NCBI GenBank assembly: GCA_903861205.1
Contig: CAIOTC010000018.1
Location: forward strand, 11,800-75,799
Origin: an uncultured bacterium
GTDB taxonomy: Bacteria; Patescibacteriota; Minisyncoccia; Phycocordibacterales; DATDWN01
Direction of reading: 5' to 3'
DNA: 64,000 bases
Position 1 is the stretch's first letter. The number at the start of each line of letters is the position of its first letter. A program made the position numbers and the translations under genes. The notes beneath the pieces were generated by a model. It was not told the DNA's origin. It did no database searches and saw nothing but the letters and a program-made list of their open reading frames with translations. Below are positions 35,409 through 62,165 of this stretch, piece after piece.

Positions 35409-35476
35409 GTTCCTGTGGGTGTCAATACAAAATTGCGCAAGCGATAATGTACGAACATCAACAACGAATGTCACAT

Positions 35477-35499
35477 AAAGCCCGCTTCTGGCGGGCTTT
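35477..35499 (+). terminator. Perfect 9-bp hairpin (aaagcccgc-ttctg-gcgggcttt), a candidate terminator of a short transcript
   Basis: The hairpin is read directly from the sequence. It lies ~70 nt downstream of the candidate promoter and is followed by TTT. Confidence 0.4.
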
Positions 35500-35596
35500 A
35501 TGCTATACTTATTTTAGTTGCTCCTATGCACAGCTAGTGGATAACACTCACAAACTTTGACATTTGTTGGAGGTTCGTCTCCACTGGCGTTGCATC

Positions 35597-35638
35597 GGAG
35601 TAACAAAAAAATCGCTTCTGCGATTTTTTTGTTACTCC
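35597..35638 (+). terminator. Perfect 19-bp hairpin (ggagtaacaaaaaaatcgc-ttct-gcgatttttttgttactcc)
   Basis: The hairpin is read directly from the sequence. It has the same TTCT(G) loop as the hairpin at 35477-35499. Confidence 0.4.
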
Positions 35639-35647
35639 GAAATTTTC

Positions 35648-36012: not shown

Positions 36013-36051
36013 GTGAAAACCGCACCGTCAAAAGTGCGGTTTTCACTTTTT
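36013..36051 (+). terminator. Rho-independent terminator-like hairpin (13-bp perfect stem, gtgaaaaccgcac…gtgcggttttcac) followed by TTTTT
   Basis: The hairpin is read directly from the sequence. It lies inside the N-terminal extension of the ORF-track secA call, which argues that secA starts downstream at 36061. Confidence 0.5.
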
Positions 36052-36060
36052 CGTGCTATA

Positions 36061-38553
36061 ATGACCGACATAATGCTTAATTTTTTGCAAAAAATCATCG
36101 GTTCCGAGACGGATCGCGCCATAAAGCAAATGTGGCCGATTGTCGAGCAAATAAACGCTTTTGAGCCGGAAATGCAAGCGCTTTCTGACGAGCTTTTGCG
36201 CGCCAAAACGGCCGAATTCAAGAAAAGAATTGCCGGAGGAGAAACTTTGGACAATATTTTGCCGGAGGCTTTTGCCACGGTGCGCGAAGCATCGCGTCGA
36301 ACACTCGGCCAGCGTCATTTTGACGTTCAACTGATTGGTGGAATCATTTTGCACCGTGGCGCCATCGCCGAGATGCGCACCGGAGAAGGCAAGACGTTGG
36401 TGGCCACTTTGCCGGCTTATCTGAATTCACTTTCCGGAGAGGGCGTGCACATTGTCACGGTCAACGACTATCTTTCTCGTCGTGATGCTGTTTGGATGGG
36501 ACAAATTTATGATTTTCTTGGTGTTTCCGTCGGTGTCATCAATCACGAAGAATCTTTTATTTACGACAGAACTCACAAAGAGCTCGACAAAGAACGCGAC
36601 ACACTAGGTTCTTTCAAAGTGGTTAATGAATTTTTGCGACCAGTTACACGCGGAGAAAGTTATCGTGCCGACATCACGTACGGAACAAACAACGAATTCG
36701 GTTTCGATTATTTGCGCGACAACATCGAGCACGAGTCCGGCCGTTTGCGACAACCGACGCACAATTTTGCCATTGTTGACGAAATCGATTCCATTTTGAT
36801 CGACGAAGCGCGCACTCCGCTCATTATTTCCGCGCCATCTGGAGATTCCGACGAGTTTTACGTTCGTTTTGCCGACATCGCCAAGAAATTGGAGAAAGGC
36901 GAGCATTACAGCGTCGACGAAAAGTTCAGATCGATATCGCTGACCGACTCCGGCATTAGCCGGGCCGAGGAACTTTTGGGTATTGAAAATATTTATACCG
37001 AAAAAGGCATCAAATATGTTCACCATCTGGAAACAGCCGTGCGGGCGCAAGCACTCTTTACTCTCGACAAGGACTACGTGGTCAAGGATGGCGAGGTTGT
37101 CATCGTCGACGAGTTTACCGGGCGTCTCCAGCCGGGCCGAAGGTGGTCGGAGGGTTTGCATCAGGCGATCGAGGCCAAGGAACACGTGGCTATCCAAAAA
37201 GAATCGCGCACGTTCGCTTCCATCACTTTCCAAAATTATTTCAGATTATACAAAAAGCTTTCCGGTATGACCGGAACAGCCGTGACTTCCGGCGAAGAAT
37301 TTTATAAAGTCTACGGACTTTCTGTTTATGTGGTGCCGACGAACAAACCGACTGTCCGCGATGACAAGAACGATTTGATTTTCCAAACCGAGGCCGGCAA
37401 GTTCAAAGCGATCGCCAAAGAAGTTTCTGTTCGCCACAAAGCGGGCCAGCCGGTTCTTATTGGTACGGCTTCGATTGAAAAAAACGAACTGCTTTCCGAA
37501 TACCTGAAAGCTGAAGGAATTCCGCACGAAGTTTTGAATGCCAAAAATCACACGCGCGAGGGAGAAATCATCGCTCAAGCCGGCAAAAAAGGCGCGGTGA
37601 CCATCGCTACCAACATGGCCGGTCGCGGAGTTGACGTCAAACTCGGCGGAAATCCGGGAAGCGCCGAGGCGCACGAAGAAGTCAAATCTTTTGGCGGACT
37701 TTTTGTACTTGGCACGGAGCGTCACGATGCGCGCCGAATCGACAACCAGCTGCGCGGGCGATCCGGCAGACAGGGCGATCCGGGGGAGACGCAATTTTTT
37801 GTTTCGCTCGACGATCACCTCATGCGCGTTTTTGGCGGCGACGGTTTCAAAAATTTGCTCGGCAAAATCGGCTTGCGCGATGACGAGCCGATTGAAAACA
37901 GAATGATTACCAAGTCGCTGGAAAACGCTCAGGAAAAAATCGAAGGCTTCAACTTTGACGCTCGCAAACACGTTTTGGAATACGACGACGTTTTGAATTT
38001 TCAGAGAAAAATAGTGTACGCCGAACGCCGCGAAGTTTTGCTCGGTGATGAAAATGCGGTCAAGGAATACCTCCGAAAAAATATCGCGGAAAAACTTCCA
38101 GAAAGTTTGGAACAAATCGAGGAAATAATTTCGAAGGCCGATTCGGAAAAAATGAAAGTTATTCGCGGTGTGATTTTGCAAACCATCGATATGTTTTGGG
38201 TTGATCACCTGGAAATGATGGATTACATGCGCTCGTCGGTTAATCTGCGCGCCTACGGCCAGCGTGACCCTTTAGTGGAATACAAACGTGAAGGACTGAA
38301 ACTTTTCAAAGATATGGAATTTTCAATCGTGGCTGAAATCGTCAAACTTTTACCGCAGATTCAAATGCAATCGCGAGTGGCTTTTGACGCGCCTGTCAAT
38401 TTGCAAGAGGTCCGCGCCGGCGCCGAGGAATTGACCAAAAACGGCCCGAAAGTGGCCGACACCCCCAAAACCCTCGACGGTCAGAAAATCGGAAGGAACG
38501 ATCCATGCTGGTGTGGCTCAAATAAAAAATTTAAACACTGTCACGGGAAGTAA
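36061..38553 (+). CDS. secA: Preprotein translocase subunit SecA
   Basis: The gene carries the DEAD-motor motifs …LGQRHFDVQLIGGIILHRGAIAEMRTGEGKTLVATLPAYLN…. The C-terminus has the zinc-binding motif CWCGSNKKFKHCHG. The start is taken at 36061 (MTDIMLNFLQKI) rather than 36013 because of the upstream hairpin. Confidence 0.9.
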   Translation: MTDIMLNFLQKIIGSETDRAIKQMWPIVEQINAFEPEMQALSDELLRAKTAEFKKRIAGGETLDNILPEAFATVREASRRTLGQRHFDVQLIGGIILHRGAIAEMRTGEGKTLVATLPAYLNSLSGEGVHIVTVNDYLSRRDAVWMGQIYDFLGVSVGVINHEESFIYDRTHKELDKERDTLGSFKVVNEFLRPVTRGESYRADITYGTNNEFGFDYLRDNIEHESGRLRQPTHNFAIVDEIDSILIDEARTPLIISAPSGDSDEFYVRFADIAKKLEKGEHYSVDEKFRSISLTDSGISRAEELLGIENIYTEKGIKYVHHLETAVRAQALFTLDKDYVVKDGEVVIVDEFTGRLQPGRRWSEGLHQAIEAKEHVAIQKESRTFASITFQNYFRLYKKLSGMTGTAVTSGEEFYKVYGLSVYVVPTNKPTVRDDKNDLIFQTEAGKFKAIAKEVSVRHKAGQPVLIGTASIEKNELLSEYLKAEGIPHEVLNAKNHTREGEIIAQAGKKGAVTIATNMAGRGVDVKLGGNPGSAEAHEEVKSFGGLFVLGTERHDARRIDNQLRGRSGRQGDPGETQFFVSLDDHLMRVFGGDGFKNLLGKIGLRDDEPIENRMITKSLENAQEKIEGFNFDARKHVLEYDDVLNFQRKIVYAERREVLLGDENAVKEYLRKNIAEKLPESLEQIEEIISKADSEKMKVIRGVILQTIDMFWVDHLEMMDYMRSSVNLRAYGQRDPLVEYKREGLKLFKDMEFSIVAEIVKLLPQIQMQSRVAFDAPVNLQEVRAGAEELTKNGPKVADTPKTLDGQKIGRNDPCWCGSNKKFKHCHGK

Positions 38554-38623
38554 AAAGCAAGCGAAGCGCAGTCCCGTAGTGAACGAGCGAAGCGAGTTTT
38601 ACTACTGGTGTACAAAAATTTTC

Positions 38624-38833
38624 ATGACAAATAAAATTCTCAAAAAAGAAACTTTTGAAAAAGAAATTGCAATGTGTCAAAAATTGTCAAAAAAGAACGG
38701 CGGTAAATGTAATTGGGGCGAGTGTAAAAAATGCGGTGTTATTCCATTATTGTATAAACTGGGCAAAGGTGAATTGCTAGAAGACCAAGATAAAATTAAA
38801 AAAATAAAGAACATATTGAAAAATCCCAGGTGA
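38624..38833 (+). CDS. Small Cys-containing hypothetical protein (69 aa; CxxxxxC…CxxC)
   Basis: The protein reads MTNKILKKETFEKEIAMCQKLSKKNGGKCNWGECKKCGVIPLLYKLGKGELLEDQDKIKKIKNILKNPR. It is AT-rich and ends inside a palindromic REP-like element. The ORF-track N-terminus (38513-38623) overlaps the secA 3' end and was discarded. Confidence 0.3.
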   Translation: MTNKILKKETFEKEIAMCQKLSKKNGGKCNWGECKKCGVIPLLYKLGKGELLEDQDKIKKIKNILKNPR

Positions 38834-38842
38834 CACCTGGGA
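38824..38842. repeat. REP-like palindrome tcccaggtgacacctggga (family P1), copy 1, 5' of the RAYT gene
   Basis: It is a perfect palindrome in the sequence and the same core recurs at 39137-39158 and 39558-39582. Confidence 0.7.
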
Positions 38843-38848
38843 CGGGCG

Positions 38849-39559
38849 GTGGTACACTTATATCATATGGTCAATAGAAAAATATCTTTTGTTGAAGGTG
38901 AGTATTATCATGTTTACAATAGGGGGAATAGCAAGCAGAAAATTTTTTTAAATTATGAAGATTATGATAGATTTACAAAACTTTTATTTCTATGCAACTC
39001 GGAGATAAATTTCAAATTTCGGGATGATATTGTAGAACAAAAGATTGATGCTTGGGAATTTGATCGAGGCGAACCAATTGTTTCAATTGGTGCGTGGGTA
39101 TTAATACCAAATCATTTTCATTTATATGTAACTATCAGTCCCAGGTGTCACCTGGGGCCAGAAGAAGATGCAATTGCATACTTTATGCAGAAGTTGTGCA
39201 CCGCTTATTCGATGTATTTTAATAAAAAATATGAGAGAACTGGCAAATTGTTTGAGGGTGTTTTTAAGTCAGTGCATATTGAAAACGATGAATATGCAAA
39301 ATATAACTTTTCTTATATTCACTTAAATCCGGTCAAATTGATTGATTCAAAATGGAAAGAAAATGGGATAAAAGATATCAAAAAAACCTTGAAATTTTTG
39401 GACAAGTATAAATGGAGCAGTTATCTTGATTATAAAGGTATCAAAAGACCAGAAAATAAAATAATTACTCGGAAAGATTTTCCGGATTATTTTAGTAATC
39501 CAAAAATTTTCAAGGAAGAAATTTTTGATTGGTTGAAATTCAATGAAGAGGAAAACTAG
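38849..39559 (+). CDS. REP-associated tyrosine transposase (RAYT) / IS200-like Y1 transposase
   Basis: GEYYHVYNRG… is typical of the RAYT/TnpA_REP N-terminus. The HuH motif is PNHFHLYV and the catalytic Tyr region is YIHLNPVK. The gene is flanked on both sides by the same palindrome and carries an internal copy encoding …ISPRCHLGPEE…. Confidence 0.7.
   Translation: MVHLYHMVNRKISFVEGEYYHVYNRGNSKQKIFLNYEDYDRFTKLLFLCNSEINFKFRDDIVEQKIDAWEFDRGEPIVSIGAWVLIPNHFHLYVTISPRCHLGPEEDAIAYFMQKLCTAYSMYFNKKYERTGKLFEGVFKSVHIENDEYAKYNFSYIHLNPVKLIDSKWKENGIKDIKKTLKFLDKYKWSSYLDYKGIKRPENKIITRKDFPDYFSNPKIFKEEIFDWLKFNEEEN
39137..39158. repeat. REP-like palindrome agtcccaggtgtcacctggggc (family P1) inserted in frame inside the RAYT coding sequence
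   Basis: It lies immediately after the HuH motif and is translated as SPRCHLGP. Confidence 0.65.
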
Positions 39560-39596
39560 TCCCAGGTGTCACCTGGGGCTACCTTGGACTAGTTTG
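39556..39596. repeat. REP-like palindrome (family P1), copy 3, overlapping the RAYT stop codon
   Basis: The sequence aactagtcccaggtgtcacctggggctaccttggactagtt has outer arms ctagtcc/ggactag, which extend the palindrome. Confidence 0.65.
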
Positions 39597-46871: not shown

Positions 46872-46922
46872 TTGATTTGAGAATAAAGATTCAAGAGACA
46901 AGATTCAAGAATAAAACAAATC

Positions 46923-46948
46923 AAAACACCGCCAAGGCGGTGTTTTGA
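46923..46948. terminator. Bidirectional rho-independent terminator (caaaacaccgcc-aa-ggcggtgttttg)
   Basis: It is a perfect 12-bp stem flanked by A/T runs and lies between convergent gatB and the HTH gene. Confidence 0.6.
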
Positions 46949-46981
46949 TTATTCCTGAATCATACATCTTGAATCATGATT

Positions 46982-47858: not shown

Positions 47859-50800
47859 ATGAGTTCCGATTTATTCTTTCAAAATAAAAAATATATTTCC
47901 GCTAAAGAAGCGGCGGAACTAACTTCGTATTCCAGAGATTACATCGGACAACTTTGCCGCGATAAAAAAATTGATTCGAAAAGAATCGGACACACTTGGT
48001 ACGTTTGCGAGGAATCAATTTTAAATTATAAAAACACTCCTACTGATTTTGATTTTGCGAAGAATTTTAAAGGTGCGCTCACACCGGGTGTTGGGGATCA
48101 AACACCCGGTGAGAGCTCCACAAATTTGTTCCCGAGGACTGACCTCCAATGCCCAATTTCCCGAGGTCAGACCTCCGGAACAAAATTTGTCAAATCGACA
48201 CACAAAATTCTTTTTGCAAAGAATTTTCACTTCTCGAAAGTTTTTGCTTCTGTTGCGGCAATTGTCATTTTCTTCCTTGGGACGATTTCATTGGCGCAAG
48301 GTTTTGCGAATCTTGTTCCGATGACTTCAAAATTTGCCGGCGATGTTTCGAAAATTTCTCTTTCACAAATTGCAAAGTCCGCGCAAAATATTTCAGATGA
48401 AATTTCCGCAGCGCCGGAAAATTCTTACAACGCGCTAAAAGATATTGCAGTTTTTTATTCATCGGAGTTTACCGATGGTCTGATCAATTTTGGAAATAAA
48501 ATTCAAAACGCCACTTTTGCATTTTTGAATCAAACGAAAAAATTGGCCAAAAATCCCCCGCTTTACATCGTCCAATCTTTGACCGGGCTAGCCGGTGGCG
48601 AAACAAAAATTGTCGACAGTGGAATTTCCATTTCCGGCAACGCCATCGCCACGGCGCACGAAAAAACTTTTGCTTTTATTTCCGACTCGATTGGCGGTTT
48701 ACCTTTTGTTGCGAACTACACCACCTCGACAACAAAAAATATGACTTCGTCGGTGGCGATGGCGGTGCAAGAAAAAGCATTGACGCCGGTTGATCATGCC
48801 GGCATTTCGATTTATGACTCGGTCAACAATTTCTTCCGAACGAATTTGTATTCTCCGCTCCTAGCATTTCTCGGTAAAAGTCCGAACATTGTGGTGCCGG
48901 AGAAAAAGTCGGCAGGACCGATGATTGCGAAAAATCAGGGTGTGCTCACACCAAAGTCAGATTTGTCCACACCTGGTGATAACGTTGCTTCGCCGTTGAC
49001 ACCAGGTGAGTACAAATCTGCGGGCATAACCAGCGCGGAGCTTGATTTGCGTTTACAGGAACTCGACAACAAAATCGCGGCCAAGTTTGCCCAACTTTCG
49101 ACTGGCAACGGCGGAAGCGTGCAAAATATTTACAACATGATTGCTCAGAGCCAAGTCGGCGCGGGCGTCTCGAACGGCGGATCGGCCAGCTCGGCAACGG
49201 TAGCCAACGGACTTGTGGCCGGCACGGACATCAGCGTCAACTCCATCACGGTTACCGGCTCGGCCACATCGACATTCGCCGGCGGAATTGCGATTAGCGG
49301 CGGCTGTATTTCGGTGAACGGCGTTTGCCTCGGTTCCGGTTCCGGCAACACAACTGGCGGTTTGGCCGGACAATTTCCGTATTACCAAAATGACGGTTCG
49401 ACACTTTATGCAACTTCATCAATCTTTATCACCCCGAACGGAAATGTCGGCATTGGCACGACGACGCCCGCCAAAAAATTCTCGGTTGACGGCGATGTCA
49501 TTGTTAGCGGAAATATTTTCACCACGCTTTTCAATGCCATCAGCTTGAGCGCGACGAATGCCACGACATCAAACTTCGCCATTACCAACATCAAATCATC
49601 TCTCCTCAAAACAAACGCCGACGGCACGGTTGTCGCCGCGATTGCCGGCACCGACTACGAATCCAGCACAACGGTCAATTCGCTGATCAACGCTTCGACC
49701 ACCATCGCCAAACTTTACACCAACAACAATTTCACCGGACTGCAAACATTCAACTACTCATCCTCCACCATTTACTCATCGTTTGTCACCGCCTCGACCA
49801 CCAATCTTTTGGCCGGTACCATCTCACTCAACGGCACAGATTTGCAAACGACACTCAACGGCAAGCAATCCACCATCTCCGCTAACTGGCCGTTCACACT
49901 CACCGGCAGCACACTTGGTTGGAATGGTCTTTCCACTTCATCGGCCGCCACCATCGGCAACATTCCGTACTTCACCTCCGCAAACACATTCGGCAATGTT
50001 GGAACCACCACACCGACATTTAACCTCGGTCTGACAGCCGGAGGAACATGGTCTGTTCTCGGTTCCGCGCCGACACTTACCATCGCTACATCTTCTCTCT
50101 ACACCGGTACCACCGGACAATTCCCGTACTTCAGTGGGACAAACACCATCACTGCCACTTCGTCACTCTTCCTCGCGACGAGTGGGAATGTGGGCATTGG
50201 AACGGCGATTCCGGGCGTGAAATTGCAAGTTGTAGGACAATCAGGAACTGGAAACATAGGAGTGATAAATATCACCGGTTATGACTCGTTCGGTCAAAGT
50301 TTGGTTATGCAACTGCCAAGTACCGGATATACCGGTAATCTGATTGCATTGATGAAAGCCGCCGGTGGCTCAGGCCAGGCCATGGGTTTTTCAACTCATT
50401 TTACTTCCGACGCGGTTGACAGGTTTTCCATAATGAATCATCTTGGCGTTGAAAATCTTTCTGTTTTAGACAGCGGCAACGTTGGCATTGGCAGTACTTC
50501 TCCAACATACAAACTATCGGTCGAAGGAACATCATCTCTAGGCAATCAAGCCATCGCCGGATATTTCACCGCCACCTCGACCATGGCCACTTCCACATTC
50601 GCCGGCGGTCTCGACATCACCAAAGGTTTGCAACTGAACAGCGGCTACATTTTCGGCGCGGGACTTTCCTCTTGCAACGGCACTACGGCCAAACTTTTAT
50701 GGAACGCGACCACCGGCCAATTCGAGTGCGGCACTGATGCCGGCTCGTCCGGTCTCGGCATCTCATCGATCAACGGTCTGGCTGTCGGTGTGCAAAAATT

Positions 50801-53800
50801 AGCCACATCGTCCACTAACGGCGGCTGGGGATTTTTGTCATCGGTTGACACGCACACGCTCAACATTCCGACGGCCTCGGCGACAAATCCGCTCGGTTTA
50901 CTTTCGTCATCGGACTGGACAACGTTCAACAACAAGGACAGTTTCGCTTTTCCATTCATCGCCCAATCGTACGGAATGTCCACCACGTCAACTCTCGGTT
51001 TGCTCGGCGGATTTTTCACACCGGCTTCGGCCTCATCCACCATCGCCGGCACGTTCAACTTGCCGTCACTTTCAAACGGCGCGCTGGCCGTCTACAACGG
51101 ACTGGTCGGAAGCTATGCCACCACCACGGCCGGATCTTCTCTGACATATTCCGGCAATGCGTTTAATCTGAACATGGCCAACGCCAACTCGTGGACGGCC
51201 AACCAAACATTTGCATTCTCGTCGACCACGTATGCATCGCTGACCACCGCGTCGACAACCAATCTCACCATCGGCGGAAACACTTTCAACACACTTGTCG
51301 GCGCAGGACTGATCAACAACTCCGGCGCGCTTGGTCTGACCAACACTTCGCTTACAGTCAACGCCGGCACCGGACTTTCCGGCGGTGGCACAGTCGCTTT
51401 AGGCGGAACAATCACACTTTCAAATCAGCTGGCCACCTCGTCCGGCGAATCAGCGGGCAACTTGGCATACTGGACCACGACCAACGGAGTGCCGGCCAAA
51501 CTCGGCTCGGTGGCCACCACCACCCTGACTGCTTCCGGCGCGCTGTCACTCGACCACGCCATTTCCGTGCTTGGCTCGACACCATCGATCCTGACATGCG
51601 CCACCGCCAACTCCTCGACGTTCGGATGTTTAGCCGCCGCTGACTTCTCCAAATTTAATTCCGCCACCACTACTTTTGGCGGAGGATTGTCATATTCAAA
51701 CGCATCAAATCAAGCGACACTGAACATGGCCAATGCAAACACTTGGACAGCGTTGCAATCATTCAACTACTCATCGTCAACGATTTACTCATCATTCGTC
51801 ACAGCATCGACCACAAATCTTTTGGCCGGAACAATTTCACTGGGCGGCGCCGATTTGCAGACGACACTGAATTCGAAACTTGGCACATCCCTCGCCAAAG
51901 GAAAATTCCTCGTAGGCGATGATAATGGCGTGGCGCAGGCGACATCGACAATTTTCATTTCTTCGACAGGCAACGTGGGGATTGGGACAGCAGTACCGGG
52001 AGCGTTAGTTCACATATTGTCTTCTGCAACAAAAAATGTAAATGGCCAAGAAGTTTTGAGACTTTCAGGTACAGCTGCAGCTGACACTATTGGAAGCGGG
52101 CCCAAAATATTATTTACTCATTCCGACAACACAGTAACCGCATCGATTCGCTCTTATACTTTTGGGGCTAGTGATACTGGTCTGGCATTTAGCACTGGTT
52201 ATGGAGCTTTGACAGATAAGATGTTTATTAATAACGCGGGCTCCGTCGGCATCGGCTCGACATCTCCGACGTACAAACTCTCCGTCGAAGGAACATCATC
52301 TCTCGGCAATCAAGCCATCGCCGGATATTTCACTGCCACTTCTACCATGGCTACTTCGACATTCGCCGGCGGACTCGATATCACCAAAGGTTTGCAACTG
52401 AACTCCGGTTACATTTTTGGCGCGGGATTGGGAACATGCTCGTCTGTTACCGGAAAAATAACTTGGAATTCAGCAACCGGACAATTTGGTTGCGGGACTG
52501 ACGCGGGTTCGTCCGGTGTTGGCATCACCTCTCTCGGCGCGCAATATTCCATCGCTCAAACCAACGCTATCCAAACTCTGGCTACCTCGACATCGCTCGA
52601 CGCCAATCTCCGACTGACCATCACCTCGGCCGGCGACACGCACACATTCACACCGTCCTGGTTTGGCACGCTCGACGACAGTCGCATCACTTCGGCCGCC
52701 AATTGGAACACCGCGTACTCGAGCAGAATCACCTCCGCCTCACTGCCGCTTTCATTCTCCGGCAACGTTCTCTCAATCTCGCAAGCCAACGGCACGACCA
52801 ACGGCTACTTGTCCGCTGCTGACTTCTCCAAATTTAATTCTGCGACAACAACATTCGGCGGAGGATTGACATACACCGCGGGCACAAACCAAGCTACGCT
52901 GAATCTTGGAAATGCCAACACCTGGACTGCACTGCAATCTTTCAACTACTCCTCATCAACCATTTACTCGTCATTTGTCACAGCTTCGACCACCAATCTT
53001 TTGGCCGGCACCATTTCACTGGGCGGCACCGATTTGCAAACAACACTCAATGGCAAACAATCCACTATCTCTGCATCATGGCCGATTACACTAAACGGTG
53101 CGACAGTTGGCTTCAACGGACTCTCCACTTCCTCTGCAGCTGTCACCGGCAACATTCCATACTTCACCGGAGCGAACACATTCGGCAATGTGGCTACCAC
53201 TACACCAACATTCAATCTCGGACTGACAGCTGGAGGAACATGGTCTGTTCTAGGCTCCGCACCGACACTTTCCATCGCCACTTCTTCTCTCTACACCGGT
53301 ACTGCTGGACAATTCCCATATTTTAGTGACACCAACACCATCACCGCCACTTCATCGCTCTTCTTAGCGACGAGTGGGAATGTAGGCATCGGGACGGCAT
53401 CTCCTGTAACTCCTCTAGATATCTACAGAAACGGCAGTTACTACAATTATTTAAATCTCAGAAACGGGCAAATGAGTAATAACGTCGGCTTGCCTTCCGT
53501 AGACACTGTGTTCAGCGTTAGCCAAGAAACTCCAACATATGGGAAAGCGATAGTCACCGGAGTTTATTCAAATGGAGACAGCTACGCATTAAAATTGAAG
53601 GGAGTTAGCGGAGCAACCAGTTTGACCGCGGCCCCTCTTGTTTTGACCGGCGCAAAAAGAAATAGCAGCAGTCAAGTTAACGTTGCTGATACAGAACAGT
53701 TGTTGCAAGTACAAAAAAATGATGGCACTGCTTTGATGACTATGTTGGGTGGTGGAAATTTGGGCATTGGCACCACCTCGCCATCGTACAAATTGGATGT

Positions 53801-56800
53801 GATGGGTGGTATTGCTTCGTACGGTTCTTCGTTCTTTGGCGGAGCCATCACCGCCACATCGACACTGAACGTCAGCGGACTTGCGACATTCGCGTATTCC
53901 ACCACCACCTACGGATCTTTCACCACCGCTTCAACAACAAATTTTGTTTTGAACGGACAAACATTCAACAATCTTGTTGGTTCCGGTCTGTCGCTAAACA
54001 ACGGCGTGCTTTCCGCGACGGGTGGAGCCGGCAATGTTTCTACCTCATCAGGTGAGGTAATGGGACAACTTTCATACTGGACTACCACTAATGGCACCCC
54101 GGCAAAATTGGGAAGCGTCGCCACCACCACCTTGACCGCTTCCGGCGCGCTCTCACTCGATCACGCCATTTCCGTTCTCGGCGGAACTCCGGCGATCCTC
54201 ACATGCACCACGGCCAACGCCACCACTTTCGGTTGTTTGGCCGCCGCTGACTTCTCCCGCTTCAATTCCGCCACGACGACATTCAGCGGAGGACTATCCT
54301 ACACAGCCGGCACAAATCAAGCATCGCTTAACATGGCAAATGCAAATACATGGACAGTCAACCAATCTTTCAATTATTCCTCATCAACCATTTACTCGTC
54401 ATTTGTCACCGCCAGCACCACCAATCTTTTGGCTGGCACAATCTCACTCAATGGCACGGATTTGCAAACAACATTGAACTCAAAACTCGGAACGACACTG
54501 GCCAAAGGAAAATTCATTGTCGGTGATGACAACGGTGTGGCGCAGGCGACATCGACACTATATATATCATCCCTCGGCCAAATCGGCATCGGCGATACCT
54601 CGCCGTCCGCTTTACTTTCCGTTGGCACCACTACCAGCACCAACGCCGTTGGCGGAATGTATTTTGGCAAGGACACCACGGCGAATTTGTACAGGAGTGG
54701 AGCGGGATGGTTGAAGACTGATGGAAATTTGGAAGTGGCCGGCGGAACAGGTTTGAAAATCAGCAGTGGAGCTTTAAATATGAATGGTGGCGCAATTAGT
54801 AGTATCAGACAATTAGTTGGAGCTACAACTGATGATGGAACAGGTGTAATTAATTTCTCTAATGCAAATCTTACATCCGCTCAATATATTAACCTTACCC
54901 AAAATACTTCCGCTTTTACCGGCGACGGTTTGAAGTTTAATTTCGCTGCAGGCTCCGGTTCCTTCACCGGCAACTTTGCTGAGTTCCAAAATAACAGCGT
55001 AACAAAGTTTGTTGTCAAATCAGATGGTTCAACCGGCATCGGCTCATCCACTCCCGGTTCGCTCCTCTCCATTGGTGGCAATGGCACAGGTTGGAATTTC
55101 TTTGACAACGGCACGACGACCAGCTACGCAAAAGGAATTGATCTGAAAAACGGCGGTTGCTTCGCTGTCAACGGCACGTGCTTGTCGAGTGGCGGATTGT
55201 CGGCGGCCATCACTTCGCTCAACGGACTAACCGGCGCGATCCAAACATTCGCCACCACATCGATCGCCGGCGGTTGGGGCTGGAGCTCGGTTGGCACCAC
55301 ACACACACTCAACATTCCGACGGCTTCGGCCACCAACCCACTCGGCCTGCTTTCCGGCGCGGACTTCACCACCTTCTCCAACAAGCTCGGCAACACGCTG
55401 GCCAAAGGTAATTTCTTTGTCGGCTCGGATGGCAATGTGGCGCAAGCGACAAGTTCCATTTTCATTTCATCGACCGGCTCGATCGGCATCGGCACGCAAA
55501 ATCCATCATCGCTTCTGTCGATCCTCGGCACCACCGGCGGACCGTCACTTTTCAACGTCGCCTCCACATCGGGCAATTCCATTTTCAGCATTCTCAATAA
55601 CGGCTCGATCGGCATCGGCACATCATCACCGCTCGCCACGCTGGACATTCAAAATAATCCGACCAGTTTCCAAAATTTGCTGAACTTCTCAAACTCCTCC
55701 GGCACATCGCTCATGAATGTCGGCTGGTACGGCGACTTGACCCAAAATATTTCCTCGACCTCGGCGGTCAATATCCAGGACGGCGCGGGCAACTCGGTCT
55801 TCTCGATCGACACCACGCAGTCGTCGTCCAACGCCGGTCTCGACATCACCGCGGGTGGCGCGCAGTCGGGTAATTTGCTGAACGTCTACTCGTCCGGCGG
55901 CGACTTGCTCTCCGGCATCACCTCCGAGGGCGGCTGGTTCTCCAACATCGGCTCGACCAACGCGCTGTCCCTGCAAAACGGCAGTGGCTTGCCGGCCTTC
56001 ACATTTGACACCATCGGCAACCAGCTGACCGTCGGCTCGTCGACCGTGCCGACCACTTCGCTTCTCAATGTCATTGCCGTCGACCAATCGACTGATTTGT
56101 TTGACATCGCGTCAACCTCAGGCACGACATCATATTTGCACGTGACCAACACCGGCCAAACCGGCATTGGTACCAGCACCATAAACGGCACATCGCTTGC
56201 TTCCACTTTGACCGTGGCCGGTGACGCCAACTTCCCGACATATCCGCTTTTGACCATCGCCTCGTCCACCGGCACAAATCTGTTGACACTGGGTGTCAAC
56301 GGATATCTGGGACTTGGCTCGACCACTCCGGGCTCGCTGTTGTCGGTGGGTGGCGATGCAGTGGGCATCAACTTCTCGCTCGCGACAACGACGTACTCGA
56401 CCACCGGTGGAATTAACCTAACCAAAGGTGGTTGCTTTGCGGTCAACGGCACATGCCTATCTGGTGGAGGAATTTCCGGATTGACCGGTTCAACATTGGC
56501 TAAAGGCAGTTTCCTCGTTGGCGGCGACAACAATCAATCGCAGGCGACATCGACACTATATATATCATCCCTCGGACAAATCGGCATCGGATCAACCACT
56601 CCATGGGGTCTCCTCTCCGTCAACGCCAACGCTCTCACCTCCGACACACCGCAATTCGTTGTCGGCTCATCGACCGCCACCAACTTCATCGTGGCGAATA
56701 ATGGCAACGTCGGCATCGGGACAACGAGTCCACAGGCAACCTTGAATGTTTGGGGAACTTCCGGAACAAATCCGTTTTTGGTTTCTTCATCAACGGGAAG

Positions 56801-59800
56801 TGGGCTGATGGTTGTTCAACAGAACGGCAATGTCGGGATTGGGACGACGGGGCCCAATGCTGACTTGGATATATCTAATGCTAATCTGACACAAACAATC
56901 AGGCTGGGTTATTCGGGAACTCCGGCGGGACAGTATGCGCAATTTCAATTTAATAAAGCCTCGGATAATAGTTTAAATATTCTCACAAATTATTCCGGAG
57001 GTACAAATAATGTAATAACGTTCTCTCCAGGCGGAACCGAAAAGGTGCGATTTCAACAGAACGGCAACGTCGGCATCGGGACGACGACTGTGGGTAGTAG
57101 ATTAGTCGTGCAAGGTTCGGGAGCTACATCAGCTACGACAGCTTTAACGGTACAGAACAGTGCGGGAAGTGTGGCAATGTCAATATTAAATAACGGCAAC
57201 GTCGGCATCGGGACGACGAGTCCGAGTCAGTTGTTGACTGTGGGGAATAATAATCAGTTTACGGTTTCTTCAGTCGGAGCACTGGTGTCTCAAACGGCAA
57301 CAATTGGAGCAACGGCTGTGGTGCCTGTTGTGGTGAGTGGTACCGGAATATTCGGTGGCGCTTCTCCTAATGGGACATACAGTTATATTGGTAAGGATGG
57401 CTTTGGTGCAAATGAGTATCAATTTGGTACTTGGTATATATGGTGGGATAATGCGGTGCCTTGCTGGATTATTAATCATAGCCTTGGAACATGGAGTTCA
57501 AACGGGTTTTATAGTAGCGGAGGTTCAGGAACACCGCCATATGGTTTGGCCTGGAACAATGGGTCGTCAGGAACTGTGACTACTGCCGCTGGAGTGGCAA
57601 GTAATTTGACGGTAGATGGAGGTGGCAGCATTATTACCGGTGGTACTTTAAGTGTAAATGGAACAGGGAATAGTTATATACTCGGCAACGTCGGCATCGG
57701 GACAACGAGTCCACAGGCAACCTTGAATGTTTGGGGAACTTCCGGAACAAATCCGTTTTTGGTTTCTTCATCAACGGGAAGTGGGCTGATGGTTGTTCAA
57801 CAGAACGGCAATGTCGGCATCGGCACCACCACTCCAACCAACAAACTGACCATCACCGACACGGCCAATCCGCAGTTGACCCTGTCGGCTGACGCGGGTG
57901 TCTCGCAATGGGCCTTCCGCAACGCCGGTGGGAATTTGTATTTTGCCACGACCACGGTGGCGGGAACAGCGACAACATCGACTTCTGCGCTCTCCATTTT
58001 TAACAACGGCAACGTCAGCATTGGCAATTCCGCCACAGCCAACACTCTGACGGTTGGTGGCGGTTCGAACCTTGCCAGTATCAGCAACACCGCCACTTCC
58101 ACATTCTCACACAGCATCAGCTTGTCTGACGGATGTTTTGCCATCGGTAACACTTGCATCGGCTCGTCAAACGGCTCGGGCACGGTTGGTGTGGGAACGC
58201 AGGGTTATGTTCCGTTCTACAACACCGCCACCGATGTTCTCCAGGCCACATCGACACTATATATAGCGCAGTCTGGCTACGTCGGCATCGGCGGAGTGAC
58301 CAGTCCGACAAATCCGCTGGACGTCAGAGTCGGTGGCAGTGTTGCTTCGCCGAAACTGATTTCCTTTGACTTACTCGGTTCGGTCGAGCGCATCAAGACA
58401 ACATCGACCGCTTTGGATTTGCCAAACTTTATATATCTCGACTCGTCATCCGGCGACGCCACTTTGTCCAACACGGCCAACACCCAGAGCCAGATATTGC
58501 TCGGCGCTAATACCACTGTCGAAGGTCAGGGCAGTTTGTACCTCGACACATTCTCCGGCGGTGGCGGCAGCATTTTCTTCCGACCGCTCGGCACGCAGAA
58601 AATGGTTTTGACCAGTGATGGCAAACTGGGCGTGAATACCACAGCTCCGGCAGGGAATTTGCAAGTCAACGATGGCGCGAACGCTTTCCTGGTCAACGCC
58701 TCCGGCCAAGTCGGCATCGGCACGACCACACTGACATCGAAACTTTCCGTCGAGGGTAGCGTGACCTCATCGGGCGCCAGCGCGGTGGCGGGATTGTTCG
58801 CTTCGTCAACATTGAGCAACTCGAATGGTAGCGGATTCCAGTTCGGCAACAGGCTGATCAACAACGTCATCGGTGGAACGGCCGGGACCGAGGACGGGTT
58901 GTTCGTGCGCATGATCGATTCGTCCAGCGCAGCCAACACGGTGCGTGGTCTCGAAGTTCAGGCTTACTCGGGCAACAACACGGCCGGCGTCAACACCGGT
59001 ATCGCCACCTACGGCAAGACATTCGGTTTGCAAGCTTACACCACCGCGCTGGCCGGCGGAGTGTCGCAACCGGCGGCGGTGTTTGCGCAACTCGACAACG
59101 GCGGCGCACCGACCATCGGCAATGCTATTCGCGCATATTCCAACTCGCTGACATCGGCCACGCTGGTCAGTTTGTACCACGAGACATCGGCCTTCACCGG
59201 CACAGGTTTGGCCATGAACTTCGGCAACAACTCCGGCAGCTTCAGCGGTAACTTCCTCGATTTGCAAAACGCGGGTGTGAGCAAGTTCCGAGTCAACAGT
59301 GTTGGCCAAACGATAATCGGTTCTGCCGGTTCGTTCAACAGCTCGATGCTCGATGTCGCTTCGTCGACCGCCACCTCGAACGTCGACATGTTCCGCATCA
59401 TCTCCGACGTCGGTGGCGCGGCCAACGTCAAATTCCGCATCGACTCCGACGGAGATGTCTTCACTGACGGTGGCACGACAATCGGCTCACCGGCCGACAT
59501 CGCCGAGAATTATCCGGTCGCCGAGGACGGCCTCGAAGCCGGCGACGTGGTGGCATTGTCAACATCAACAAGGGTCCCCCTTGTGGATTCTGGATTACAA
59601 GGGGGACCCTTGTTGGGAGATTCTGCAACCACCACCATCTCCGGTCTTGTCAAAGCTTCTCGCACCGAGCGCAACATTCTCGGTATCGTCTCAACCAAGC
59701 CAGGCGTTCTGCTTTCCGGCAACACCGAAAATGCCGTGCCTGTCGCGTTGGCCGGACGCGTGCCAGTCAAAGTGTCTGACGAAAACGGCGCCATTGTGGT

Positions 59801-61003: not shown

Positions 61004-61666
61004 ATGAAAAATCGCGACTATAAAGAGTTTGCAGAAGGTGAGTATTATCACATTTTTAACCGCGGTGTCGGCAAGATGGATATTTTTTTGGATGACCAAG
61101 ACTACCTAAACTTTCTCAAGCGCCTGAAAATCGTTCTGAACTTGACTCCAAAAAGGGTGCCCCTTTTGGGTTCGGATTCAGAAAAAGGGGCACCCTTTTT
61201 GCACCTGTCTCCGTTGCCTGAAAATTCCTTTGAAATCATCTGTTATTGTCTGATGCCTAACCACTTCCATTTTATTATTAAACAACTCGGCGACATTTCA
61301 ATAAGCGATTTGATTTCAAAAATCTGCATTAGTTACTCAATGTATTTCAATAAAAAAAATGATCGAGTTGGTTCCTTGTATCAAGATCAGTTCAAAGCCA
61401 TCAACATTGCTACCGACCAGTATCTCCTCTGGCTTTCCGCCTACATCCACCAAAATCCGCATGTGGCCGGGTTGGTCAAAAATTTGGCGGACTGGAAATG
61501 GTCCAGCTACCCCGACTACATCGGCGCGCGGCAGGGAACTTTGTGCAAAAAGGACGTGGTGCTAGAGCGATTCAAAAACGCGCGCGAGTACGCCGACTTT
61601 GTGGATAGCGGTTTTGATATAATAAAAAATAAGGCGGAGTTGAAAGATTTATTGTTGGATTTTTAA
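61004..61666 (+). CDS. Second RAYT / IS200-like Y1 transposase paralog
   Basis: It has the GEYYHIFNRG N-terminus, the HuH motif PNHFHFII and the Tyr region YIHQNPHVAGL. It contains an in-frame P2 palindrome at 61150-61200. Confidence 0.65.
   Translation: MKNRDYKEFAEGEYYHIFNRGVGKMDIFLDDQDYLNFLKRLKIVLNLTPKRVPLLGSDSEKGAPFLHLSPLPENSFEIICYCLMPNHFHFIIKQLGDISISDLISKICISYSMYFNKKNDRVGSLYQDQFKAINIATDQYLLWLSAYIHQNPHVAGLVKNLADWKWSSYPDYIGARQGTLCKKDVVLERFKNAREYADFVDSGFDIIKNKAELKDLLLDF
61150..61200. repeat. Palindromic element family P2 (aaaaagggtgcccctttt…aaaaaggggcacccttttt) in frame inside RAYT-2
   Basis: The inverted repeat is read directly from the sequence. It encodes KRVPLLGSDSEKGAPFL between the RAYT N-terminal motif and the HuH motif. 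Confidence 0.6.
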
Positions 61667-61704: not shown

Positions 61705-61725
61705 CAGAGAGGGACACCCTCTCTG
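61705..61725. repeat. P2-family palindrome (cagagagggacaccctctctg) 3' of RAYT-2
   Basis: It is a perfect palindrome apart from the central base. Confidence 0.55.
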
Positions 61726-61940: not shown

Positions 61941-62165
61941 ATGTTCAAAATTTTTAGAAAAACAAATATCGGAGAGGGAGAGGGTGCCCCTCTCAACCCA
62001 AAAAGGAGAGGGGCACCCTCTCTGTGGTCCAAAGGTTACATTAAAACCAAGAAAATAATTACCATCGCCGTTATTCTAGTCCTCATTGCCACCTCGATTA
62101 TTGTTCTGCCGTTGCTCACCCAGGCGTCGTGGTTTGGGGCGGGCAAGGCGGGTGTGTTAAAATAA
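61941..62165 (+). pseudogene. Truncated duplicate of the 5' end (signal-anchor region) of the LamG/DUF2341-like gene at 62929
   Basis: …KGYIKTKKIITIAVILVLIATSIIVLPLLTQASWFGAGKAGVLK* aligns with MSQRGFVKTKKVITVAVLTVLVAASIVILPTLTQASWFSNGKGTW… of the downstream gene. The 5' part (GEGEGAPLNPKRRGAPSL) is encoded by a P2 palindrome at 61971-62024. Confidence 0.35.
61971..62024. repeat. P2-family palindromic element pair (agagggtgcccctct…agaggggcaccctct)
   Basis: The inverted repeat is read directly from the sequence. Confidence 0.55.

Follow-up and report, generated by a model that had tools for sequence, protein, structure and literature searches.

Why would the gene of a transposase-like enzyme carry, inside its own reading frame, the same hairpin that flanks it on both sides, and how could the copies have stayed the same? 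The question is raised by a stretch of 64,000 nucleotides from an uncultured bacterium of the Patescibacteriota (assembly GCA_903861205.1, contig CAIOTC010000018.1, positions 11,800 to 75,799; hereafter the window). There, an initial annotation made from the letters alone had noticed a gene for a REP-associated tyrosine transposase (RAYT), here called the first RAYT, with one palindrome, P1, placed before, within and after it. RAYT-type enzymes are the leading candidates for spreading repetitive extragenic palindromic (REP) sequences, and a question that they raise is how enzyme and repeat stay matched. We have analysed this locus in the window and in homologous loci of other Patescibacteria. 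The answer we favour, to which we give a probability of roughly 0.6, is that the locus is a unit of the REPtron/TIRtron type: a domesticated-type IS200-like Y1 HUH gene, from a Patescibacteria-specific clade, that would own a private cognate hairpin set in three fixed places, with the copies kept in concert.

Results

One hairpin in three places

The consensus of P1 is TCCCAGGTG(A/T)CACCTGGG. When the whole 64-kb window is searched with the pattern TCCCAGGTGWCACCTGGGA and up to two mismatches are allowed, exactly three matches are found (Table 1), against 0 in 100 dinucleotide-preserving shuffles of the window, which bears out the three places given in the initial annotation. The upstream copy has A at its centre and no mismatch to the pattern. 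The internal and downstream copies have T at the centre and one mismatch each, and are identical to each other over 22 nt (AGTCCCAGGTGTCACCTGGGGC; 39137-39158 and 39558-39579). Read in frame, the internal copy encodes S-P-R-C-H-L-G immediately C-terminal to NHFHLYVTI, while the downstream copy begins at the base next to the TAG stop, the stop codon itself being paired in the extended stem. As single-stranded DNA, each copy is predicted to fold into a hairpin of 8-11 bp (-7.5 to -8.8 kcal/mol).

The upstream copy had been placed 7 bp from a GTG start at 38849, for a protein of 236 aa. We have corrected this to the ATG at 38867, which leaves 24 nt between the copy and the start and gives a protein of 230 aa, because an identical database protein (P0001, 230 aa) and all homologues start there, with M-x-x-R-K; the true N-terminus is almost certainly MVNRK... 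On the other side of the same copy, a putative open reading frame (ORF; 38513-38833) of 106 aa, without any match in Pfam, overlaps secA at its end, and its TGA stop codon is supplied by the palindrome centre.

The enzyme belongs to the RAYT type by its predicted fold

Judging by its profile scores, the first RAYT is a sequence-divergent member of the Y1 HUH superfamily. It reaches 16.9 bits against Pfam Y1_Tnp (PF01797; E=0.007), under the cut-off of 23 bits, and 35 bits against NCBIfam REP_Tyr_transpos (E=9e-9), under a cut-off of 80. The profile check thus succeeds only for a second RAYT that had been proposed in the window, 37% identical to the first in protein sequence (Table 1). Still, two of the hallmarks on which the assignment of the first had been based stand: the HUH (NHFH) and Y---NP (YIHLNP) motifs are invariant in the alignment of homologues, and an AlphaFold2 model (mean predicted local distance difference test score, pLDDT, 85; predicted template modelling score, pTM, 0.86) finds its best PDB match by Foldseek in 4ER8 (E=1.8e-5), a structure of the E. 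coli RAYT with a bound REP hairpin, followed by ISDra2 and IS608 TnpA. Sequence identity to 4ER8 is 14% in the structural alignment. Going by the modelled fold, which settles the family, the first gene encodes a RAYT-type Y1 HUH enzyme.

In the model, numbered for 236 aa, the SPRCHLG peptide corresponds to S97-G103; the HUH strand (E89-96) precedes it and helix 108-127 follows. Residues 98-102 form a short helical turn according to DSSP, and the pLDDT of the block falls to 64 for residues 101-110. The palindrome-coded segment is therefore predicted to occupy a lower-confidence stretch between two structural elements, in line with the loop position that the initial annotation had envisaged.

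The layout is conserved but its sequence is specific to each locus

A homologue search with the first RAYT returned 6799 proteins, and its relatives come essentially all from Patescibacteria metagenome bins. We took 80 homologous loci (L001-L080) from species-representative metagenome-assembled genomes (MAGs) of GTDB Patescibacteria and analysed their DNA. Of these loci, 45 have a perfect palindrome inside the gene, 31-50 nt past the Asn codon of NHFH; its stem measures 8-15 bp and its centre 1-5 nt. The 75 nt that follow the HUH motif contain a perfect palindrome in 46/72 genes, as opposed to 1/432 for six other 75-nt intervals of the same genes. These internal palindromes have 41 distinct arm sequences, very unlike each other between loci (for instance CCCCTAGGG.., TGCGGAAGC.., CCATAAGTC.., CCCTACACC.. 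and AAGAACGCC..), and the palindrome of each locus recurs 13-54 nt 5′ of the ATG and -12 to +32 nt from the stop. Where both flanks are available (42 loci), the upstream, internal and downstream copies match with at most one mismatch in 29. The remaining 13 divide into loci with matching upstream and internal copies (nine, in several of which the downstream copy is translated, as a C-terminal tail, and entered another count), with matching internal and downstream copies (two), or with the internal copy alone (two). Matching upstream and downstream palindromes are found in nearly all loci, including a short-loop subfamily (L067-L080) that lacks the internal copy.

It could be argued that a peptide of the form xPRxxLG is conserved for its function and that the palindrome is incidental, or a product of chance, and a loose pattern of this kind does recur in the closest homologues. 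We consider this practically negligible. The peptides differ widely (NAEARLP, SHKSDLW, SPTPGVG and MKNARRS, for example), the DNA is nonetheless always a perfect palindrome equal to the non-coding flanking copies, and the shuffles set the expectation by chance at 0 matches. Moreover, the segment is missing from distant homologues, namely the short-loop subfamily, the second RAYT of the window, whose loop is short as well, and the E. coli RAYT, which identifies it as a DNA element and not as ancestral protein sequence. Between these two options the distant RAYTs decide in favour of the initial annotation, which had proposed a lineage-specific insertion; what does not hold is the idea of an accident, given that a palindrome occupies the same site in so many of the genes. 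The internal copy is an old, maintained element of a large Patescibacteria clade, with a sequence specific to each locus, and not a one-off or recent insertion.

The three copies change together, and with the protein

When the palindrome-coded columns are masked, protein clusters coincide with palindrome families: GGAAGC-AAG-GCTTCC, CCAYAAGTC and TTCCCC...GGGGAA each match a protein clade, and the first RAYT of the window clusters with L001 and L041. Within the CCAYAAGTC group, three loci each have a private variant that is repeated in the two arms of every copy (L066 GCACAAGTC, L064 CCCGAAGTC, L048 CCATAAGTC). Independent evolution would need six parallel substitutions for each such step, so that copying between the three sites appears as the economical explanation of these sequences. 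The differences that do exist among the copies of a locus are mostly point changes in a single arm, and look like ordinary decay. Also, paralogues from the same MAG, 62-82% identical in nucleotide sequence, each have their own palindrome.

How could this come about? The palindromes would be, as single-stranded DNA hairpins, the substrates of the encoded enzyme, and their copies would be kept identical by copying among the sites, either through cleavage and rejoining catalysed by the enzyme or through short-tract conversion. The internal copy, for its part, would persist because its loop tolerates insertion. E. coli TnpA_REP cleaves and rejoins REPs, according to PMC3333891 as it is cited in PMC6006769.

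An extra half-site, that is, 7-9 nt of one arm, is repeated 2-15 nt away in ~10% of palindrome copies (L048, L047, L017, L024, L010 and L049). Such repeats could be the footprint of a copying mechanism; we have rejected them as a general feature of the palindromes, on account of this low frequency.

The hairpin stays close to its gene

A REP is by definition a dispersed, high-copy repeat, and this part of the initial annotation did not hold. The 63 kb of the window outside the gene contain no further copy of P1, and in the flanks of homologous loci the extra copies number 14 in the 111 kb examined at 0-1.5 kb and 0 in the 106 kb examined at 1.5-3 kb, all 14 being confined to ~1.2 kb of the gene. 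Over the window and the locus flanks, a scope with which a low genome-wide density is still compatible, the palindromes are local to the gene and not genome-wide REPs. No conserved GTAG/CGTC foot or cleavage motif was found beside upstream, internal, downstream or extra copies; no bases are conserved outside the maximal palindrome, and the stems are perfect.

These data bear on the possibility of an active IS200-like insertion sequence (IS), in which the flanking palindromes would be the left- and right-end hairpins of an element of ~760 bp, and the internal hairpin an alternative end. The unit is indeed IS200-like in its size and layout, and its gene is homologous to Y1 transposases; most loci have different genomic neighbours from one another, contig ends are a frequent location, and there are several paralogues per genome. 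However, the paralogues of a genome have diverged to the extent given above, each with its own palindrome (a comparison to be read knowing that MAG assemblies collapse identical repeats), tnpB is absent, and both ends are the same symmetric palindrome, with neither distinct left and right ends nor a conserved cleavage tetranucleotide. In addition, the synteny of secA and RAYT is kept in the window, L002, L031, L057 and L045 despite 59-67% protein identity. We therefore hold an active IS to be quite unlikely.

A RAYT just 3′ of secA (36013-38553 in the window) is seen for both RAYT families, in the four loci just named and in L104, L122, L130 and L141; this neighbourhood points either to a position conserved since long ago or to a site at which these genes preferentially land. 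Homologous genes within a few hundred bases of contig ends, or on very short contigs, occur in L006, L010, L020, L028, L037, L044, L050, L066, L072 and L075, and such loci may break assemblies by being repeated or strain-variable.

The upstream copy is embedded in a predicted promoter

Promoters were called as consensus matches and not as mapped transcripts. A perfect TATAAT stands between the upstream palindrome and the ATG in 28/39 loci, and a hexamer with at most one mismatch to it in 39/39; the median distance from the palindrome core to the hexamer is 12 nt, and from the hexamer to the ATG 6 nt. The -35 position falls within the upstream palindrome in 34/38 loci, and the observed orientation of the palindrome matches TTGACA at -35 better in 11 cases, equally well in 27 and worse in 0. 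In the window, the predicted -35 element sits at the centre of P1, and the ATG comes 8 nt after the -10 element. Because the -10 box is this close to the ATG, the mRNA of the first RAYT is probably leaderless or nearly leaderless. The location of the upstream copy suggests autoregulation in cis through the promoter: by binding this copy, and perhaps the internal one, the enzyme would, as the most likely consequence, limit its own expression.

A leaderless mRNA would contain the internal and downstream copies only, and these could then act at the RNA level, as a block to 3′ exonucleases, a processing site, a pause in translation or the end of a stable truncated 5′ fragment. The hairpins are stable, and REPs at 3′ ends stabilise mRNA in E. 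coli (background in PMC3733652). Yet the same sequence is kept at the promoter, where it is not transcribed, copies are found in either orientation, which changes the loop of the RNA, and the strict perfect symmetry points to a constraint at the DNA level. Nor does a scan of the window with Rfam give any match at the gathering threshold, or a scan for the terminator consensus any T-run 3′ of the internal or downstream copy on the + strand. An element of RNA is thus, in our opinion, improbable. For lack of that T-run, an intrinsic terminator on the + strand was rejected as well, consensus matches being on the minus strand only.

Does the internal copy matter?

Several observations weigh against the unit that we favour, or against the roles we would give to its parts. 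The internal copy is degenerate in L002, L021, L026, L042 and L075, and absent in L008, L011, L013, L018, L025, L031 and L045, whose ORFs and flanking copies are intact: it is dispensable. Across clades, the centre of the palindrome falls in each of the three codon phases (29, 11 and 5 loci), a pattern that agrees better with repeated replacement, at a permissive position, than with a functional site that is fixed. At the promoter, the 11:0 count of orientations is inflated by relatedness (7/11 of these loci share the hexamer TTGCTT), the -35 matches are weak, with a mean of 3/6, and it is the position of the copy that suggests autoregulation. Finally, 160 loci yielded neither excision or inversion variants nor orphan N- or C-terminal half-genes bounded by palindromes; two apparent half-genes proved to be a contig end and a divergent N-terminus.

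The internal copy could then be a neutral passenger: a cognate hairpin lodged in a permissive surface loop, without any role, and refreshed or lost through the activity of the enzyme on nearby copies. The use of all three phases fits this idea, as do the decay or loss of the copy in ~1/4 of the long-loop genes with intact ORFs and the place of the segment, past the HUH strand and before the next helix, at a dip in the confidence of the model. So do the sporadic copies at other in-frame sites (at +492 in L052 and L063, +469 in L128 and +638 in L155, and overall in ~8/79 genes of the second family, described below) and the verdict of Quentin et al. (2018, PMC6006769) that comparable insertions in the RAYTs of their TnpA_Y1 subclass 2.4 are peripheral and of little impact. 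But a perfect palindrome has been kept at a single site in 46/72 genes, in lineages whose proteins are ~40% different, and is almost never seen in the rest of the gene (1/432 intervals). A neutral palindrome of 20-30 bp should moreover decay, and its identity with the flanks needs continuing homogenisation. We see a mere passenger as possible, if rather doubtful.

At the opposite end, the three hairpins may form a self-addressed circuit, in which the enzyme would recognise the promoter and coding-strand copies, throttle, cut or rearrange its own gene, and overwrite the three sites with the active variant. We think this unlikely. If true, the in-frame copy would be a built-in record of precise, frame-preserving replacement of a hairpin by a Y1 HUH enzyme, and this abundant Patescibacteria family would be a natural system for studying the co-evolution of RAYTs and repeats. 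We retain a REPtron/TIRtron-type unit with three copies kept in concert as the best account of the locus.

The second RAYT and other repeats of the window

The features at both RAYT genes are collected in Table 1.

Table 1. Features at the first and second RAYT genes; positions are those of the 64,000-nt window.
Feature	Position	Strand	Details
Upstream P1 copy	38824..38842	.	TCCCAGGTGACACCTGGGA, perfect 9+1+9; DNA hairpin -8.1 kcal/mol, z = -3.3
Predicted RAYT-gene promoter	38830..38858	+	-35 GTGACA 38830-38835, 17-nt spacer, TG-extended -10 TACACT 38853-38858; consensus scan only
RAYT/TIRYT-like Y1 HUH gene (first RAYT), 230 aa	38867..39559	+	NHFH 39110-39121; predicted catalytic Tyr codon of YIHLNP 39314-39316; TAG 39557-39559
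Internal in-frame P1 copy	39139..39157	.	Perfect core 39140-39156; translated SPRCHLG
Downstream P1 copy, abutting the stop codon	39560..39578	.	DNA hairpin -8.8 kcal/mol, z = -3.4
Second RAYT-type gene, 220 aa	61004..61666	+	Motifs NHFH, YIHQNP; Pfam Y1_Tnp 38 bits, passes
In-frame REPIN-like inverted doublet in the second RAYT	61149..61201	.	Translated ...PKRVPLLGSDSEKGAPFLH...; DNA fold -21.4 kcal/mol, z = -5.5
Palindrome CAGAGAGGGACACCCTCTCTG	61705..61725	.	38 nt after the stop of the second RAYT; GGG-N3-CCC core of the doublet, other outer stem

The second RAYT had been said to repeat the pattern of the first with another palindrome. It does so in having an internal in-frame copy, but this is a doublet with 19-nt arms (61149-61167 and 61183-61201) that are 100% complementary, and it sits in a different loop from P1, between helix 1 and strand 2. 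Nor is there an upstream palindrome copy at this gene, and the downstream palindrome is related but not identical. We fetched 80 metagenomic loci of this second family, in which flanking palindromes or REPIN-like doublets are common. An internal in-frame copy equal to the flanking copies was counted in ~8 of 79 loci, at +140 to +190 in L081, L084, L093, L095, L154 and L159, and at the more distal sites already given for L128 and L155; the internal copy is thus sporadic in this family. In the first family, the related loci L052 (~3494) and L063 (~3493) have a fourth in-frame palindrome copy in the C-terminal region of the gene (+492/+493).

Palindromes with the GGG-N3-CCC core are confined to 59.5-62.0 kb of the window: all 7 (59568, 59597, 61151, 61182, 61705, 61978 and 62006) lie within ~2 kb of the second RAYT, with none in the other 60 kb. 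Their core is constant and their outer stems vary (ACAA, AAAA, GAGA). One inverted doublet (61978-61994 and 62006-62022) falls in the N-terminal coding part of a 74-aa ORF (61941-62165) with a hydrophobic C-terminal half and no Pfam match. Several other REPIN-like inverted repeats are in frame within an intact ORF of 4377 aa (47859-60992), at 48077-48116, 48122-48187, 48958-49020, 59566-59615, ~59892-59950 and ~60219-60280, and encode peptides such as LTPGVGDQTPGES, NLFPRTDLQCPISRGQTSG and TPGVNGEATLSPGV; they are reminiscent of the Rickettsia palindromic elements found in coding genes. Long perfect hairpins unrelated to P1 are present at 35474-35502, 35595-35640 and 46919-46950 (stems of 12, 21 and 15 bp), the first two a few hundred bases upstream of secA.

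Discussion

The clade described here provides dozens of independent natural cases in which a private hairpin, present three times, has changed along with the protein; one copy is under the constraint of a reading frame and another under that of a promoter. The comparative evidence for copying between the sites is strong, and autoregulation is suggested. The family is also very common in the ultra-small genomes of Patescibacteria, as the size of the homologue search attests, and this runs against the published trend, which places tnpA_REP-like genes in larger genomes (PMC6006769).

How does this unit compare with known systems? It shares with the E. coli RAYT (subclass 2.2, 4ER8) the Y1 HUH chemistry, by prediction, and a low-copy gene flanked by hairpin repeats. 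It differs in that E. coli REPs are imperfect, tagged with GTAG and dispersed in hundreds of copies and bacterial interspersed mosaic elements (BIMEs), whereas the palindromes here are perfect and local; and the E. coli RAYT gene has no intragenic copy. More generally, the traits of REP-RAYT systems or REPtrons that we recover are the presence of the cognate palindrome on either side of the gene, and low-copy, diverged paralogues with their own type of repeat. High-copy dispersal (over the window and locus flanks), the GTAG/CGTC foot and the imperfect stem are missing. In these MAG assemblies, which collapse identical repeats, the multiple near-identical copies, distinct left and right subterminal hairpins and cleavage tetranucleotides of IS200/IS605 elements are not found either. 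Rickettsia palindromic elements and other intragenic REPs offer another likeness, as palindromic repeats that lie in frame in coding genes and are translated, and intragenic REPs have been reported in many genes (Di Nocera et al. 2013, PMC3733652). These elements, however, insert into unrelated host genes, and are not, as we propose here, the cognate site of the protein of the carrier gene.

TIRtrons are closer. In these, a RAYT-like gene stands between inverted repeats that may be self-complementary and often have no further copies in the genome (Di Nocera et al. 2013, PMC3733652), much like the flanking palindromes described here. Quentin et al. equate TIRtrons, or TIRYT, with TnpA_Y1 subclass 2.1 (Bertels Group 1), whose signature is NH[YF]H, FQ or W[EQ], Y[IV]HLNP, a length of ~238 aa and a C-terminal extension with a conserved Ser (PMC6006769). 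The NHFH and YIHLNP motifs, the 230 aa and an invariant KWSSY (W189/S191/Y192) of our clade fit this signature, with FE in place of FQ. By this comparison, which covers motifs only, the clade looks like subclass 2.1/TIRYT and not like subclass 2.4. There are differences too. Quentin et al. found neither REP-like flanks nor intragenic copies in subclass 2.1 (PMC6006769), and here both are present; P1 lacks the GGGGWSAS motif, and the flanks are short perfect palindromes accompanied by a third copy in frame.

It is with subclass 2.4 that the arrangement itself has a precedent. The initial annotation had taken a REP carried in frame inside a RAYT gene for undescribed, and this was wrong: Quentin et al. 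(2018, PMC6006769) reported REPs inserted in frame, in the same loop, within the tnpA_REP genes of subclass 2.4, the Group 4 RAYTs of Bertels from Cyanobacteria and Bacteroidetes, and called this unique to the subclass. In both cases the gene has cognate palindromes on its flanks and also within, where they leave the reading frame open. The two depart from each other in their motifs (NH[IFV]H, WQ, YIxNNP and a median of 194 aa in subclass 2.4, against NHFH, FE, YIHLNP and 230 aa here) and in their insertions, which vary in length and sequence in subclass 2.4 and amount here to one internal copy per gene at a nearly fixed position. Our palindromes are perfect and have neither the GT[AG]G foot nor the double foot; they cluster around the gene, going by the window and the locus flanks, instead of being scattered over the genome; and their hosts are Patescibacteria, a phylum that Quentin et al. 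did not sample (PMC6006769). A tblastn search of plasmids for a cyanobacterial comparator of subclass 2.4 gave only distant matches from Firmicutes and Proteobacteria (24-33% identity). In the searchable literature we found nothing specific to this arrangement in Patescibacteria, an absence that is no proof of novelty. What was already known is that a cognate REP can lie in frame inside its own RAYT gene; our results extend this to a clade of Patescibacteria that has, by motif comparison, the look of subclass 2.1/TIRYT, and in which the palindromes are perfect and untagged.

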